Shown piece after piece: positions 7,226 to 15,024 of a DNA stretch of 64,000 nucleotides. Origin of the DNA: a virus; IMG/VR virus record IMGVR_UViG_3300045451_000008, positions 1 through 64,000 of that record, one strand, 5' to 3'. The notes under the pieces were generated by a model. That model worked only from the letters and a program-made list of their open reading frames with translations, was not told the DNA's origin and searched no databases. Made by a program: the position numbers and the translations under genes. Position 1 is the first letter of the stretch. Each line of letters opens with the position of its first letter.

Positions 7226-7963
7226 ATGGCGCCCATCGCGACGTGGAACTTCGCTGAGACGAGTGGGAACTACTCGACCACGGAAGGGGACCTCACGCTT
7301 CTTCCGGGTCGAGGCGCTCCCGCTCGCGTCACCACTCCGTTCGGCTATGGAGTCTCGCTCTCGTCCAGCTTCCTCCGGGTGGACAAGGACTCCGTGGGAC
7401 GTCTCAACATCGGAGCACAGGGGAAGAACACCGTCACCATCGCCGCATGGGTCAAGCGCTCCAACACGGGCACTGGATTCCTCGCGGGGATGTGGCAGGA
7501 GGACAACACGGACCCGCGCCGCCAGTACGGGGCCTTCGTCCACCTCCCCACGTACGGTGGGTCGAACAAGGCGTGCATGCACGTCTCCAAGACCGGCGCC
7601 CCGACTCCTGGCTACCCCTACAGCCGGGACTACAGCGCTTCCGGGCAGACCATCACCAACGATGTCTGGCAGCTCCACGTGGGCACGTACGACGGCAGCG
7701 AGGCGCGGTCCTACCTCAACGGTGCGTTCCAGGCCGTGAGCAGCTACACGGACAGCCTGGGCAACACCTACGCCAAGAACCCCTACGCCTTCGCAGACGG
7801 CCTCAACGCCACCCCGTGTGACTTCACGGTGGGAGCGGTGGAGCTGTCGGCAGGGCCGGGGAACTACTTCGGTGGAGAGATGGCCAAGCTCCGTGTCTGG
7901 GACCGAGCCCTCAGCGCTTCCGAGATCTCGGCGCTCTACGCAACCGAGTCCGCCGTTCTGTGA
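7226..7963 (+). CDS. LamG/concanavalin A-like domain protein
   Basis: TIAAWVK, WQLHVGTYDG...YLNG and FGGEMAKLRVWDRALSASEISALY are typical LamG_3 motifs. Confidence 0.8.
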   Translation: MAPIATWNFAETSGNYSTTEGDLTLLPGRGAPARVTTPFGYGVSLSSSFLRVDKDSVGRLNIGAQGKNTVTIAAWVKRSNTGTGFLAGMWQEDNTDPRRQYGAFVHLPTYGGSNKACMHVSKTGAPTPGYPYSRDYSASGQTITNDVWQLHVGTYDGSEARSYLNGAFQAVSSYTDSLGNTYAKNPYAFADGLNATPCDFTVGAVELSAGPGNYFGGEMAKLRVWDRALSASEISALYATESAVL

Positions 7964-7969
7964 TAGCGT
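7961..7969 (+). promoter_or_regulatory. Extended -10 promoter (TG-n-TAGCGT) for a leaderless leader-peptide/tRNA transcript
   Basis: TGATAGCGT followed by 7 nt and then ATG at 7977, similar to the spacing at other leaderless promoters in this window. Confidence 0.55.
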
Positions 7970-7976
7970 GACCGAC

Positions 7977-8018
7977 ATGGAGCGCAACCAGCAGCAGAAT
8001 CAGTCCCACACGGGCTGA
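7977..8018 (+). CDS. Putative attenuator leader peptide MERNQQQNQSHTG
   Basis: Codons AAC CAG CAG CAG AAT CAG are six consecutive Asn/Gln codons, upstream of a terminator and tRNA-Asn/tRNA-Gln. Confidence 0.65.
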   Translation: MERNQQQNQSHTG

Positions 8019-8035
8019 CTTCTTTGCTGATCGCT

Positions 8036-8079
8036 AGAAGCCCCCCGTGCCTAACAAGGTCCGGGGGGCTTCTTCGTTT
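8036..8079 (+). terminator. Intrinsic terminator (attenuator 3:4 hairpin) upstream of the tRNA genes
   Basis: 12-bp perfect stem AGAAGCCCCCCG (8036-8047) / CGGGGGGCTTCT (8062-8073) followed by TCGTTT. Confidence 0.75.
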
Positions 8080-8092
8080 CCCGCTTCAATGA

Positions 8093-8165
8093 TCCCCTGT
8101 AGCTCAGTTGGTAGAGCGCCGCACTGTTAATGCGGATGTCGTTGGTTCGAGTCCAGCCGGGGGAG
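8093..8165 (+). tRNA. tRNA-Asn (GTT), CCA not encoded
   Basis: Acceptor TCCCCTG/CGGGGGA; D-arm GCTC-AGTTGGTA-GAGC; anticodon arm CCGCA-CTGTTAA-TGCGG; T-loop TTCGAGT. Confidence 0.93.
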
Positions 8166-8166
8166 C

Positions 8167-8241
8167 TTGCCTGTCGTCTAATCGGCAAGACGGCGCGTTC
8201 TGGGCGCGTCTATCGAGGTTCGAGTCCTTGCAGGCAAGCCA
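8167..8241 (+). tRNA. tRNA-Gln (CTG) with encoded CCA
   Basis: Acceptor TTGCCTG/CAGGCAA + G + CCA; anticodon arm GCGCG-TTCTGGG-CGCGT; T-arm CGAGG-TTCGAGT-CCTTG. Confidence 0.9.
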
Positions 8242-8298
8242 ATTCGGGTCTGCTAGTAGACTGAGACAGCTCATCTAGTAGAAGCCGGAGCCCGCCCC

Positions 8299-10743
8299 GT
8301 GGGAATTCTTGACGCACCTCTTCGTTGGGGTGGCATCCGCGGCGACATCAAGGACCAGGACGACCTCGTCGCAGCTCTTGAGGCAGCAGTCGGCGGCGGA
8401 CCAGTGTCCAAGACCGTGCTCAACGTCAAGGACTTCGGGGCCAAGGGTGACGGCGTCGCAGACGACTGGGCAGCCATCGACGCAGCCTGTGACGCAGCGG
8501 AAGCCTCGCGAGGCACCACCGTCTTCTTCCCCGAGGGCGTCTACCTCATCTCCAAGAGCATCGGCAACGGGAGCACGGGCTACACGAGCGTCCGCCTGGA
8601 GGGCGACGGGGAGCTGGGCTCGACCATCAAGGTCACGACCAACGTCCCCGTCATCAACGGTGCCTGGTGGGTCTCGCGCATCAAGAATCTTGTTCTGGAC
8701 GCCGCAGGCAAGGGCTCGCCCTGCATCTCGGCTCACGTGGACAAGACCAAGCTGGAGGCTCTCCAGCTCCTGGGCTGGACCGGCCACGGCATGCGGCTCA
8801 ACGACGGCACCTTCGGTGACCTCGGGCTCCTGAACCGTATCATCGACTGCAACATCGACCAGAACACCGGCTACGGGATCTGGGCCACCTACCGCTTCAT
8901 CGACTCCTGGATCGCCAACAACAACATCGGCTCCTCTGAGGCCAACATCTCTGTCGAGGGCGGTCCTCTTCGCATCACGGACAACCACCTGGACGGTGCC
9001 CCGCGAATCAACATCGAGCTTCGAGGCAACAAGCGCATCACCATCACGGAGAACATCCTGGAGGGCGCACGGGAGTCCGCGATCACCTACACGATGCCGA
9101 GCTGGCTCTCGGGAGACAAGCCGGACATCCAGATCGTCGGCAACGCCTTCAGCAACGGTGGCAAGGCCGCAGCGGGCACCTACCCTGCCATCAAGATTCT
9201 CGGCGTTTCGGCCGACAAGCTCGTGCGCGGCTTCAACATCGTGGGCAACATCTTCGCCAACGAGGACGCAGGCGCCGGGTGGTCGTACATCATCGACGCG
9301 CAGTTCGCCGCAGGCATCTCTACCGCGGGCAACCAGTGGGAGACGGGCTTCACCACCTCCCCGGTGCGCTTCGTCTCCAGTGAGATGACGTCTATCGACA
9401 TCTCCGAAGGTGCCGCCTCCACCTTCTCTGTGTTCCGCACGAGCGTCTCGGACGCACTCGGGACCAAGGCGCCGCTCACGCACACCCACGAGCAGAGCGA
9501 CGTCAACGGCCTGGTCACAGCTCTCGCAGGCAAGGCCTTCACCTCGCACTCTCACCAGCAGAGCCAGGTCACCGGACTCACCGCAGCTCTGGACGGCAAG
9601 GCAGCGCTCTCCCACACGCACGCGCAGAGCGAGGTCACTGGGCTGACCACAGCGCTCGCAGCCAAGAGCGACAACGGCCATGTGCACCTTCCCACCGACA
9701 TCACGGGCCTGGTGGACGCGCAGGGGAAGATCCAGTCCAGCTTCCTCCCGCCCATCAGCGTCGTGGACGTCACGCCCGTGTCCTCGCAGGCAGCCATGCT
9801 CGCGCTCAACGCGGACAAGGGCGACGTCGCCATCCGCACCGACACGAACCAGACCTTCATCCTCTCCGCCAACACCCCCACGGTGCTCTCGGCGTGGAAG
9901 GAGATCGTCTCCCCGGCTGACGGGGTGCTCACGGTCAACGGACGCCAGGGGCCGAACATCTCAGGCCTCGCGGAGCAGACCGCGCTCGAGAATTTCGCGG
10001 GTGCTGTCACGACCCTCACGAACAACCAGGGCGCCGCCATCACCGAGCGAGAGCTTCTGGTGAACAAGAGCATCGACCCCGCACTCGGCGCTTCCGACAC
10101 GCTCTACTCCACGCAGAAGGCCGTCAAGACCTACGTGGACGCTCAGGTGGCCACTCGTGCAGCTCTGTCTCACACCCACACCACTGCGAACATCACGGGG
10201 CTCGACGCGACCCTTCAGAGCTTCGCCCCCATCACGCACTCCCACAACACCTCGCAGGTCACCGGCCTGGACGCCGCGCTGACCGCACGTGAGCTTGTGA
10301 CGAACAAGAGCACCGTGGTCACCCTGGGCAGCTCGGACACGCTCTACCCCTCTCAGAAGGCCGTCAAGACCTACACCGACACGCAGATCTCTACGCTCGC
10401 GTCGTCGCTAAACCGGCTCTCCAACCTCGCCACCTCTACCGCAGGCATCACGCCGGACCCGCTCACCTACTTCGAGTACGAGATCACGGCGCAGTCCACG
10501 TCTCTCACCATCGCCAACCCCAACGTGGTCCCGCCCAACGGCACCTCGCTCCAGTTCGTTGTCAAGGACAACGGGACCAACTTCCCGATCACCTGGGGCT
10601 CGGCCTACCACCCCACGTACTTCACGCTCCCGTCCCAGACCATGAACGGGACGGGAGTCACTAACAAGATTTTCGTCGTGGTCTTCCGCTACGACTCCAC
10701 CCGCGCACGGTGGGAGCTTCAGTCCTACCGCCAGGAGGCATAG
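8299..10743 (+). CDS. Tail spike/fibre: pectate-lyase-3-like beta-helix plus His-containing tail fibre repeats
   Basis: NVKDFGAKGDGVADDWAAI...TVFFPEGVY motif; several HTHxQSxVTGL repeats; duplicated RELxxNKS...SDTLYxxQKAVKTY unit. Confidence 0.8.
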   Translation: MGILDAPLRWGGIRGDIKDQDDLVAALEAAVGGGPVSKTVLNVKDFGAKGDGVADDWAAIDAACDAAEASRGTTVFFPEGVYLISKSIGNGSTGYTSVRLEGDGELGSTIKVTTNVPVINGAWWVSRIKNLVLDAAGKGSPCISAHVDKTKLEALQLLGWTGHGMRLNDGTFGDLGLLNRIIDCNIDQNTGYGIWATYRFIDSWIANNNIGSSEANISVEGGPLRITDNHLDGAPRINIELRGNKRITITENILEGARESAITYTMPSWLSGDKPDIQIVGNAFSNGGKAAAGTYPAIKILGVSADKLVRGFNIVGNIFANEDAGAGWSYIIDAQFAAGISTAGNQWETGFTTSPVRFVSSEMTSIDISEGAASTFSVFRTSVSDALGTKAPLTHTHEQSDVNGLVTALAGKAFTSHSHQQSQVTGLTAALDGKAALSHTHAQSEVTGLTTALAAKSDNGHVHLPTDITGLVDAQGKIQSSFLPPISVVDVTPVSSQAAMLALNADKGDVAIRTDTNQTFILSANTPTVLSAWKEIVSPADGVLTVNGRQGPNISGLAEQTALENFAGAVTTLTNNQGAAITERELLVNKSIDPALGASDTLYSTQKAVKTYVDAQVATRAALSHTHTTANITGLDATLQSFAPITHSHNTSQVTGLDAALTARELVTNKSTVVTLGSSDTLYPSQKAVKTYTDTQISTLASSLNRLSNLATSTAGITPDPLTYFEYEITAQSTSLTIANPNVVPPNGTSLQFVVKDNGTNFPITWGSAYHPTYFTLPSQTMNGTGVTNKIFVVVFRYDSTRARWELQSYRQEA

Positions 10744-11882
10744 TGGCCATCCTTCAGCGCGGCTTCCGTCAGGTCTCGACGGTCACCAACCTCAACCCGC
10801 GCCCGTACCCCACAGCAGACCTCACCGGCTACCTCGCCAACTTCGCCACGGGCGGTGCCGGTGACGTCAGCTACCAGACCACGGGCGGTCCTCTAGGCCT
10901 CCCCTACTTCCGCATGACTTGGACGGCAGCATCGACCGAGCTGAGCCGGGGTGTCGAGGTGCCGATCACCAACAGCATCACGCCGGGCCTGACGTACACC
11001 CTCAGTGGTTGGATTCGAGTGAACCGCTCGCAGTCCATCGTCACCACAGCTCTTCCCACCAACTCCAGCGGCGCAGGCATCGCGAACTCCTTCGGCCCCG
11101 TGGTCAACCAGCAGGTCAACGTCTGGCACTGGGGCTCCGTCACGTTCGTAGCGCCCGCAGGCTCCGTGGGCGTGAGTGCGCGCTTCTACTCCAACAGCAC
11201 CAACGGCGGCACTGTCTGGGCCGTGGGCGACACTCTCGACGTCTCGGGCATCTTGCTGACGCAGGGACAGCCCACGCCCTACTTCGATGGCAACAGCACC
11301 GGAGCCTCGTGGGCGGGAACGCCGGGTGCTTCACGCTCCAGCACTCCGACCATCGACGGGATCTGGCCGCTGGCTCGCCTGAACGACATGGGGCAGCTCC
11401 TGCACTCGCAGGGGCACACGGGAGGGGCGAACGTCCTCCTGCCCAACCCGCTTCCGTCGAACACGCCGATGACCATGTACACCGCGCACGCGACAGGGAC
11501 GACCACCCACCGCGCCAACTTCGTGAATTCCTCAGGCACTTCCGTGCTCGCCACTGGCCGCAACTCCGCAGGCTCCGGGTGGTTCATCCTCGCCATGAAC
11601 ACTTCGGGCACCGCGATTGCTCCTAACACATCCAGGTCCACAGGACCCAACGTGGTCGCCGGGGTGCGCGAGCAGACGCTGCTTCTGGTCCACTCCCTCG
11701 CAGGCAACCAGCTCAACGCCGGGCAGGCCATCAGTGGCTGGCCTCCGGCTACCTCCATCATGGAGCGTGTGAACGCCTCCAGTGACGTGCGCAACGTGGA
11801 GGTTTGGGCCGGTGTGCACGCCGCCGACATCCGCTACGCCCGTATGTCGCAGATTCGCACGACGTACGGCATCGCTGTCTGA
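10743..11882 (+). CDS. Minor tail protein with a carbohydrate-binding-module-like domain
   Basis: GTG overlaps the upstream stop; TNLNPRP...PGLTYTLSGWIR...YFDG...WAGTPGASRS is typical of actinophage minor tail proteins. Confidence 0.65.
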   Translation: MAILQRGFRQVSTVTNLNPRPYPTADLTGYLANFATGGAGDVSYQTTGGPLGLPYFRMTWTAASTELSRGVEVPITNSITPGLTYTLSGWIRVNRSQSIVTTALPTNSSGAGIANSFGPVVNQQVNVWHWGSVTFVAPAGSVGVSARFYSNSTNGGTVWAVGDTLDVSGILLTQGQPTPYFDGNSTGASWAGTPGASRSSTPTIDGIWPLARLNDMGQLLHSQGHTGGANVLLPNPLPSNTPMTMYTAHATGTTTHRANFVNSSGTSVLATGRNSAGSGWFILAMNTSGTAIAPNTSRSTGPNVVAGVREQTLLLVHSLAGNQLNAGQAISGWPPATSIMERVNASSDVRNVEVWAGVHAADIRYARMSQIRTTYGIAV

Positions 11883-14772: not shown

Positions 14773-15024
14773 ATGACTCAGGACGAGACACAGCAGCAGC
14801 AGCAGCAGCAGCAGCGCAACACCGAGGCGGGGTGGAGTGCCTTCATGTACGTCGGCATCGCCTTCGCCATCGCGGCAGCCTTCGTCGGCGCCATCATCTT
14901 CGGTGGGCAGGCCATGACCCGCGCACACGAGGAGGGCACCAAGCGCATCGCGGAGTGCGTCGAGGCCGGGGGCTCGTGGATCAACACCACGCAGCTCTGC
15001 ATCAACGACGGGAACGAGGAGTGA
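14773..15024 (+). CDS. Small membrane protein with an N-terminal poly-Gln run
   Basis: AGGAG RBS; (CAG)8 at 14791-14814; one TM helix; C-terminal CxxxGGxW...C. Confidence 0.7.
   Translation: MTQDETQQQQQQQQRNTEAGWSAFMYVGIAFAIAAAFVGAIIFGGQAMTRAHEEGTKRIAECVEAGGSWINTTQLCINDGNEE

Follow-up and report, generated by a model that had tools for sequence, protein, structure and literature searches.

The 64,000-nt stretch of viral DNA analysed here (the window; bases 1-64000 of a 132,847-bp record that is rated complete and has ~64% G+C) carries on its + strand a 13-codon open reading frame (ORF), followed by a terminator hairpin and by the genes for tRNA-Asn(gtt) and tRNA-Gln(ctg), which ARAGORN calls as the only tRNAs in the entire 132,847-bp record. 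Six codons of this ORF are read by these two tRNAs. We think it fairly probable that the element is a ribosome-mediated leader-peptide transcription attenuator, placed ahead of tRNA genes rather than of amino-acid biosynthesis genes. A sequence-only reading of the window had proposed such an attenuator, and an independent comparative test in silico supports the proposal. Sequence comparison places the element in a family that occurs in large Microbacterium phages; each predicted leader of this family lists the amino acids of its own tRNA block. In the present phage, the block would have shrunk to two tRNAs and the leader would have turned into an Asn/Gln counter.

A short ORF with a run of Asn and Gln codons

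The leader ORF occupies 7977-8018 on the + strand, ends in a stop codon at 8016-8018 and has no Shine-Dalgarno sequence. It is preceded by the 9-base string 7961-7969, which consists of a -10-like hexamer (7964-7969) and a TG two bases 5' of it, and the first three bases of which (7961-7963) double as the stop codon of the LamG-like gene 7226-7963. The string, the ORF and the six Asn/Gln codons were all found at the positions where the sequence-only reading had placed them. The start codon begins at the eighth base past the hexamer, matching the leaderless genes of this phage, and the same start geometry recurs in 12 leaders of related phages. One of the palindromic promoters of this phage (described below) also uses this hexamer, and the B-type leader of Microbacterium phage Magritte has an identical hexamer at an identical 7-nt spacing from its leaderless start codon. 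We take 7964-7969 to be a putative promoter.

The six-codon run at 7986-8003 on the + strand comprises two Asn and four Gln codons, each read by the tRNAs encoded downstream. Runs of at least four Asn/Gln codons occur only twice in the six frames of the 132,847 bp, at 7986-8003 and 14791-14814, and runs of at least six were found in none (0) of 20 first-order Markov-simulated genomes, which served as the chance model. The other run, at 14791-14814, consists of eight consecutive in-frame Gln codons of the kind read by the tRNA-Gln and lies near the start of a small gene (14773-15024). Six of the 12 non-start codons of the leader are read by the two downstream tRNAs, for which the phage's own codon usage gives P = 1.2e-4. 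This match is specific to the frame, with 0/12 in each shifted frame and 1/36 antisense. Because a survey of very many windows yields such coincidences, we sought a comparative test out of sample.

Alternative pairings across the leader and the terminator

RNAfold predicted for 7977-8092 two adjacent hairpins and a closing helix with -60.8 kcal/mol, as compared with -35.1 +/- 3.5 kcal/mol for 200 shuffles (z = -7.4; 0/200 equally stable). Four regions of the + strand take part in the predicted folds. Region 1 (7989-8006) is built from the sensing codons and forms the 5' arm of hairpin A. Region 2 (8009-8029), which holds the leader stop codon, pairs either with region 1 through 8012-8029 or with region 3 through 8009-8023. 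Region 3 (8036-8049) is the 5' arm of the terminator, and region 2 covers it fully in the alternative pairing. In region 4 (8060-8079), the 3' arm of the terminator occupies 8062-8073, and a T-rich but imperfect tail occupies 8074-8079. Hairpin A, the 1:2 pairing of 7989-8006 with 8012-8029, has -21.3 kcal/mol in the minimum-energy fold. Hairpin B, the 3:4 pairing or terminator at 8036-8073, has 12 outer and 4 inner pairs with -31.4 kcal/mol and ends 19 nt 5' of tRNA-Asn. The tRNA-Asn gene (anticodon gtt; 8093-8166, + strand; Rfam tRNA score of 69.3 bits) is directly abutted by the tRNA-Gln gene (anticodon ctg; 8167-8241, + strand; 49.7 bits), both called by ARAGORN as well.

Hairpins A and B and the two tRNAs reading the core codons of the leader, all part of the sequence-only reading, were thus recovered by independent programs. 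The same reading had called the 2:3 pairing short and modest. The pairing does exist, but the description does not fit it: 8009-8023 and 8036-8049 form 12 pairs with -16.6 kcal/mol, an energy reached by 0/300 dinucleotide shuffles of the upstream 29 nt (mean -8.3, sd 2.2). The layout of the trp/his type, that is a leaderless ORF with 1:2, 2:3 and 3:4 pairings, therefore holds better than had been claimed. When 8007-8050 or 8007-8061 was folded, with the 3' arm of the terminator not yet made, the 12-pair 2:3 helix formed with -17.2 to -18.6 kcal/mol. At six other terminators in the genome, the upstream strand made no cross pairs in two cases and pairs at the level of shuffles in four (joint fractions of 0.07, 0.21, 0.18 and 0.76). 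In folding with ribosome masks, region 2 is free when a ribosome stalls on sensing codons three to five (A site at 7992-7998) and is masked as far as 8028 when the ribosome sits on the stop codon; unmasked RNA forms the 1:2 pairing. The equilibrium folds keep the terminator in all masked states.

The high degree of structure (z = -7.4) and the adjoining tRNA genes could also suit an RNA that senses tRNA directly in the manner of a T-box, or another known family of cis-regulatory RNA. We regard this as scarcely credible. An Rfam cmscan of 7700-8500 with E up to 10 passed only tRNA over the threshold, and T-box and leader families were not listed.

Leaders and tRNA blocks co-vary in Microbacterium phages

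We compared 13 leaders from seven phages, namely this phage and the cultured phages Magritte, Pumpernickel, Cece, A3Wally, Big4 and Zooman. The last four are among the five further Microbacterium phages that BLAST with the Pumpernickel leader regions returned at 70-78% identity. tRNAs were those called by ARAGORN together with four annotated ones that ARAGORN missed, and codon counts use non-start codons. In each of the six cultured phages, two tRNA blocks each stand after a promoter, a leaderless mini-ORF and a terminator, and the leader ORFs are unannotated in all six phage records. In the A3Wally record, tRNAs are named with the anticodon read as the codon (e.g., Pro(tgg) is labelled Trp); the amino-acid names are therefore wrong, and the ARAGORN calls were used.

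The codons of the 13 leaders match the tRNAs of their own block in 161/230 cases, as against 37/218 for the other block of the same phage, a co-variation that had been predicted before the relatives were compared. Frame controls on the same leaders gave 94/230 (+1), 80/230 (+2) and 247/690 (antisense). The A-type leaders use codons for Tyr, Glu, Leu, Asp, Phe, His and Pro, and the B-type leaders those for Ser, Lys, Arg, Asn, Gln, Trp, Thr, Val and Gly. These amino acids are those of the respective tRNA blocks, and the two sets are nearly disjoint. The correspondence extends to single codons. A Trp codon is present in the five B leaders with tRNA-Trp in their block and absent from Magritte B, where tRNA-Trp is located elsewhere; likewise, the Leu codon for anticodon tag occurs in the A leaders of the four phages having that tRNA and not in Magritte, which is without it.

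Magritte (133,228 bp, a genome size like that of the present phage) has 26 annotated tRNAs within 60000-80000, in a stretch after the replication genes that is syntenic with the tRNA locus of this phage. An intergenic region precedes two of its tRNA blocks, and both regions contain a -35/-10 promoter, a start codon 7 nt past the -10 box, a mini-ORF and a terminator. Past its start codon the A leader comprises 14 codons, of which 8 match the 8/8 downstream tRNAs one-to-one (Pro, Asp, two Glu, Tyr, Phe and two Leu), and the paired Glu and Leu codons each match different isoacceptors. Coverage of 8/8 was reached by 0/4,402 in-frame windows of Magritte coding sequences (CDS), by 5/39,914 six-frame windows and with P = 7.6e-4 in random draws from the codon usage of Magritte. 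The B leader, with 22 codons, covers 10/12 tRNAs (24/4,194 in-frame windows; P = 4.5e-3 in random draws). When crossed over, the A leader covers 3/12 tRNAs of the B block and the B leader 4/8 of the A block. Alternative pairings are also found in Magritte. In the A element, a G-run starting in the stop codon pairs with the 5' arm of the terminator (-25.5 kcal/mol) or would be covered by a terminating ribosome. In the B element, the strand beside the stop codon is complementary both to the sensing-codon strand and to the 5' arm of the terminator, with -36.4 kcal/mol for 1:2, -24.6 for 2:3 (hand-set window) and -21.1 for 3:4.

In Pumpernickel (186 kb), the order of the tRNA blocks is the same and the A and B leaders are homologous; the B leader covers 16/19 tRNAs (P = 6e-5) and the A leader 8/13 (P = 0.025). 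Both leaders are intact and lie directly behind the -10 box in Cece, A3Wally, Big4 and Zooman as well. All leaders (13/13) are followed by a hairpin with a T-rich tail 13-42 nt past the stop codon. In alignments of five sequences each, the ORF core was the best conserved segment, and two-sided pair changes in the terminator stems were seen at 2/39 predicted pairs (B alignment) and 3/25 (A alignment).

Conservation of the ORFs, which are intact in 6/6 cultured phages for each type, could also mean that they encode small peptides with a function of their own. This explanation appears very improbable to us. The B leader of A3Wally has a different peptide over nine residues, which nevertheless uses only B-block amino acids, suggesting selection on codon identity and not on the peptide. 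The nearly disjoint amino-acid sets of the two leader types mirror the tRNA blocks, and the leader in the window has just a short core in common with the B-type leaders.

The core of the window leader and its terminator 5' arm align in register with five B-type leaders, and the B-type tRNA sets account for 9 or 10 of its 12 codons. We infer that it is a B-type leader whose block was reduced to Asn and Gln and whose middle was rewritten as six Asn/Gln codons. With the smallest tRNA set and the most specialised leader, it is the strongest single case of co-variation.

The tRNA regions of the relatives have further features of their own. Gene 99 of Magritte (L030 11092-11190, minus strand), annotated as a hypothetical protein of 32 residues, overlaps the B leader's promoter and beginning on the opposite strand, and the annotation is probably spurious. 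Genes 84-85 of Magritte (L030 7986-8525) encode a membrane-like protein of 54 residues, 6 of which are Trp, and a HicA-like toxin, and directly precede tRNA-Leu(caa) and tRNA-Trp(cca) with no terminator between. The tRNA blocks of the five Pumpernickel-like phages are interspersed with genes for peptidyl-tRNA hydrolase and, in varying combinations, for an RtcB-like RNA ligase, a second RNA ligase and an ADP-ribosyltransferase or glycohydrolase, which suggests a tRNA maintenance island.

The element in related contigs

Four related contigs from three sequencing runs (X3, X4 and X5), with ~90-95% identity, cover the element; no RNA run is listed among those that contain the stretch. They span either 7959-8078 (10 substitutions, 1 inserted base) or 7959-8384 (21 substitutions, 3 inserted bases). 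In two of them the match begins exactly at 7959 and a different gene lies upstream, indicating that leader, terminator and tRNAs travel as one block, the left edge of which is the stop codon of the neighbouring gene. The ORF 7977-8018 is free of insertions and deletions in all four contigs, and the insertions are all located at the base or the top of hairpin B. The substitutions inside the element include, among those listed, 7967 C>G and 7972 C>T, and among the same listed substitutions the hexamer keeps its first, second and last base.

Promoters and terminators of the phage

This phage has a strongly conserved palindromic promoter, in which the -35 hexamer lies within a 22-bp inverted repeat. 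It heads ~21 transcription units, with 24 pattern matches on both strands (13669-63304 in the window and 110815-126058 in the genome), and in many cases the start codon of a leaderless gene follows 6-7 nt past the -10 box. None of the 24 matches lies on the + strand between 126058 and 13669. The run of + strand genes after the replication genes crosses the end of the record into the window, and the element stands at the end of a long operon. Five of the six other strong terminators are followed by a palindromic promoter within ~10-75 nt; hairpin B is followed by tRNA-Asn. Its tail resembles those of the other terminators. As a terminator of this phage, hairpin B is ordinary; its position and its competing structure are unusual.

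No promoter was detected in the 19 nt between the terminator and the tRNAs by consensus or phage-specific scans, which unfamiliar promoter classes could escape. Without a recognised promoter, the tRNAs and the genes up to ~11.9 kb would therefore be reachable only by reading through hairpin B. A candidate promoter in 8242-8298, past the tRNAs, was rejected: it has a hexamer resembling the -10 boxes of this phage and no -35. In the same interval, between tRNA-Gln and the next gene, an 8-mer found nowhere else in the genome occurs twice, 22 nt apart (8253-8282), and one of its copies overlaps a hexamer of this kind.

These surroundings bear on a plainer explanation, according to which ordinary gene-end hairpins, one stabilising and one a leaky terminator with constitutive read-through, would produce the ORF and its Asn/Gln codons as a by-product. 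The element does close a long + strand operon, for which the nearest recognised promoter lies at 126058, and very many windows were surveyed, so that a 1-in-1,000 coincidence is expected somewhere. Moreover, a motif with 10 specified bases across the stop codon occurs at 7959, 27333 and 30877, each time at a gene end followed by a small hairpin and a terminator. As a functional element, however, this motif was rejected: chance alone predicts ~0.1 copies, and of the three present, two are near-identical duplicates, so the motif shared with 27333 and 30877 carries little weight. The codon match is frame-specific, this terminator alone of the seven tested has the 2:3 pairing, and the prediction made from the window held out of sample in six other phages. 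We consider the gene-end explanation quite improbable.

The phage, its host and neighbouring genes

By GC3-based gene calling and PHROG searches, this is a large phage, whose portal and structural genes lie at ~64-104 kb and are followed by replication genes at 104-125 kb. Upstream of the element, the gene 7226-7963 (+ strand) encodes a LamG/concanavalin-like protein according to Pfam. Downstream, the gene 8299-10743 (+ strand) encodes a pectate-lyase-like protein with phage-tail repeats, also by Pfam; promoter scans recognised none of its own, and it is possibly co-regulated through read-through. The best homologues of the LamG protein are from Rathayibacter and Microbacterium, and one homologue (P0001), encoded on a 1,426-nt contig, is 86% identical. 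The portal protein is 56% identical to that of Magritte over 86% of the query. Because of these LamG homologues and the resemblance of the portal to that of Magritte, the host is probably a member of Microbacteriaceae.

An origin of the tRNAs from the host was considered and rejected, since the Rathayibacter tRNA-Asn is merely 79% identical. Copies in the other phages are 68-85% (Asn) and 53-77% (Gln) identical to the two tRNAs, and none of them is clearly closest. Searches for the element itself elsewhere gave the following. In a phage collection, 7700-8400 matched tRNAs only, 7955-8095 gave nothing useful (best E 0.4), and tblastn with the LamG-like protein returned no match. Scans of IMG/VR detected no syntenic relative: the LamG search led to one unrelated locus without tRNAs, the flanking large genes and the tRNA-junction pattern were unmatched, and two relatives by portal were fragments without tRNAs. 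Scans of JGI metagenomes gave 0 matches and then two unrelated bacterial tRNA-Ala loci. Such tRNAs were absent from eight Rathayibacter and other loci with LamG homologues, and among 401 Microbacteriaceae genomes 14 had weak matches (19 to 46 nt, best E 4.8e-4), none of which resembles the whole leader.

Discussion

We propose the following model. RNA polymerase would either start at a weak -10-only promoter at 7964-7969 or come in from the long upstream operon; in both cases it would transcribe the 13-codon leader, translation of which would be leaderless on the shorter transcript or would depend, on the long one, on re-initiation 13 nt past the stop codon of the LamG gene. When Asn- and Gln-tRNA are plentiful, the ribosome would reach the stop codon at 8016-8018 and cover region 2, or the 1:2 pairing would form; in either case the terminator at 8036-8073 could fold and transcription would end 19 nt before tRNA-Asn. 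A ribosome stalled on the six Asn/Gln codons would instead mask region 1, and region 2 could take the 5' arm of the terminator before its 3' arm is made. Once 2:3 has formed, polymerase would read into tRNA-Asn, tRNA-Gln and perhaps the next genes. The new tRNAs would relieve the shortage that caused the stall, amounting to negative feedback on the supply of both tRNAs. The phage thus probably makes both tRNAs when ribosomes run short of them.

Several observations weigh against this model. The hexamer 7964-7969 is without a credible -35, and three bases of the 9-base string belong to the stop codon of the neighbouring gene; on transcripts of the upstream operon, the ORF is without a ribosome-binding site and needs the re-initiation mentioned above. 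Hairpin B has an imperfect T-tract, and equilibrium folds keep the terminator in every masked state, including the one with region 1 masked, so the switch would need kinetic trapping or a particular folding order. Classical attenuators likewise depend on folding order. Gating by read-through would extend to the protein genes at 8299-11882, an odd arrangement for genes that look structural. Among the relatives, the automatic 2:3 test reached a shuffle fraction of <=0.05 in just 6/13 leaders, with its window mis-set for Big4 A, Zooman A and Magritte B. For the His codon of the Magritte A leader no tRNA-His is annotated, for the Tyr codon of the Pumpernickel and Zooman A leaders no tRNA-Tyr is called, and the Magritte B leader matches at just 12/22 codons. 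The leaders are homologous within each type, and the 13 leaders therefore amount to about three independent lineages per type.

Not every tRNA block has a leader. The Ile/Ala block has a promoter and no leader in 3/3 phages (Zooman, A3Wally and Pumpernickel), and no such leader was found ahead of the tRNA block of Streptomyces phage Satis. Neither was a leader found before the Asn+Gln pair of Microbacterium phage Katzastrophic, where a plain promoter stands instead, nor before that of Mycobacterium phage SheaKeira. In these two unrelated actinophages, Katzastrophic (42 kb, L031 704-902) and SheaKeira (52 kb, L003 1495-1648), tRNA-Asn(gtt) is followed by tRNA-Gln(ctg), and the pair comprises the only tRNA genes within the stretches examined. 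This recurrence hints at a special need for exactly these tRNAs.

A further point of the same kind concerns the terminators of the five Pumpernickel-like phages. A consensus -35 hexamer is invariant in 10/10 of their loops while the stems vary, and a T-rich hexamer lies 17-18 nt past it, with the usual second-position A in 2/8 distinct hexamers. The two could possibly be a second promoter that bypasses the terminator; the loop hexamer may belong to a promoter that is fused with the terminator, or may be bound by a protein. If such a promoter operates, the leaders in these phages would add to a basal tRNA supply rather than gate it. The loop element is not present in this window or in Magritte.

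These observations lend some weight to a different role for the mini-ORF, namely that of a translated sensor tied to the tRNA set, whose output would be precursor processing or stability, access of Rho or an overlapping promoter, and not termination. The co-variation of codons and tRNAs requires only that translating these codons matters, and the invariant loop hexamers, the persistence of the terminator in equilibrium folds and the weak 2:3 pairing in several relatives would all fit. On the other side, a stable hairpin with a T-rich tail comes after each of the 13 leaders. In the window, in Magritte A and in several B leaders, the 5' arm of the terminator is taken up by a competing pairing that beats shuffles, and a second promoter is not visible between terminator and tRNAs in the window or Magritte. 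We regard a sensor without control of termination as unlikely, and transcription attenuation remains the reading that we prefer.

Beyond the single element, we offer one wider picture tentatively, as a possibility that we ourselves hold in some doubt. An entire clade of large actinobacterial phages would possess a self-regulating tRNA supply, in which leaderless "menu" peptides list the amino acids of the blocks they gate and are rewritten as tRNAs are gained and lost, and in the present phage the leader would have become an Asn/Gln-only sensor, which may detect the collapse of these pools, for example through a tRNA-cutting defence of the host, and respond with replacement tRNAs. That host anticodon nucleases are the trigger is pure conjecture. 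Many Actinobacteria load both Asn and Gln via a shared GatCAB transamidation route. Given this common route and the recurrence of the pair in unrelated actinophages, the circuit may specifically detect the collapse of both pools.

Why phages carry tRNA genes, and when these are used, has been argued for decades. If attenuation holds, at least some phages would gauge how fast individual codons are decoded and produce tRNAs as needed, extending classical attenuation from amino-acid supply to tRNA supply. If the trigger were cleavage of tRNAs by the host, the phages would have in these leaders an inbuilt means of sensing a defence system. The design would also be a compact part for synthetic biology, that is a promoter-free sensor for any chosen codon set. 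Magritte, Pumpernickel and their relatives were cultured on Microbacterium foliorum and M. paraoxydans, making the model directly testable, and the version in the window, with one leader, two amino acids and two tRNAs, is the simplest member.

Comparison with known systems

Leader-peptide attenuators of enterobacteria control the trp, his, leu, thr and ilv operons, and the thr and ilv leaders are multivalent. The element described here is like the attenuators of amino-acid operons in its short ORF rich in sensing codons, in the overlap of its 1:2, 2:3 and 3:4 pairings and in the intrinsic terminator before the genes that would be regulated. It differs in being phage-borne and in its output, which would be the tRNAs that decode the sensing codons and not enzymes. 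The leaders of its relatives are multivalent like those of thr and ilv; they list up to ~ten amino acids, usually with one or two codons each. No sequence or Rfam relationship connects the phage leader with these attenuators.

T-box RNAs bind uncharged tRNA directly, need no translation and choose between a terminator and an antiterminator. The present element would share with them the sensing of tRNA supply and this choice, and it differs in the direct binding of tRNA without translation on the T-box side; no T-box match was obtained here.

Closer to the presumed host, attenuators are described in Actinobacteria. In Streptomyces lividans, leaderless leader peptides of 12-22 residues are followed by hairpins, several of which lack a clear U-tract; those of amino-acid operons include trpL, leuL and ilvL, and others stand ahead of the aminoacyl-tRNA synthetase genes leuS, trpS, alaS and thrS (PMC8079986). 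Corynebacterium glutamicum has leader peptides at trpE, leuA, ilvB and aroF (PMC3890552). The leaderless start predicted for the phage element is a feature in common with the S. lividans attenuators in general. The synthetase leaders are alike also in tuning the translation apparatus in Actinobacteria, and unlike in that their output is a synthetase and that they are monovalent and chromosomal.

For extra tRNA genes under regulation, the nearest published case that we found is the long tRNA array (trn operon) of Anabaena, which is induced by translational stress via the repressor TrcR (PMC8421152, PMC10272220). There, too, a supernumerary tRNA set is switched on under impaired translation, and rtcB is associated with the array as RtcB-like ligase genes are found beside the Pumpernickel-like tRNA arrays. 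The mechanism is different, a protein repressor acting at the promoter; the text of PMC8421152 contains neither "attenuat" nor "leader" (0 occurrences), and that of PMC10272220 neither "attenuat" nor "leader peptide" (0 occurrences). On the phage side, tRNAs have been proposed, as a hypothesis, to counter host tRNA nucleases (PMC10264068), which would give a reason to sense and refill particular tRNAs; that paper concerns anticodon-loop changes and not regulation. Another proposal is that phage tRNAs complement tRNA genes disrupted by integration (PMC10865867).

We found no account of a leader-peptide attenuator ahead of tRNA genes in the open-access and bioRxiv literature searched, in agreement with the sequence-only reading, which knew of no described attenuator controlling phage tRNA genes. 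A codon-matched attenuator in this position would follow a known control principle, and its regulated output, the tRNAs, would be new.

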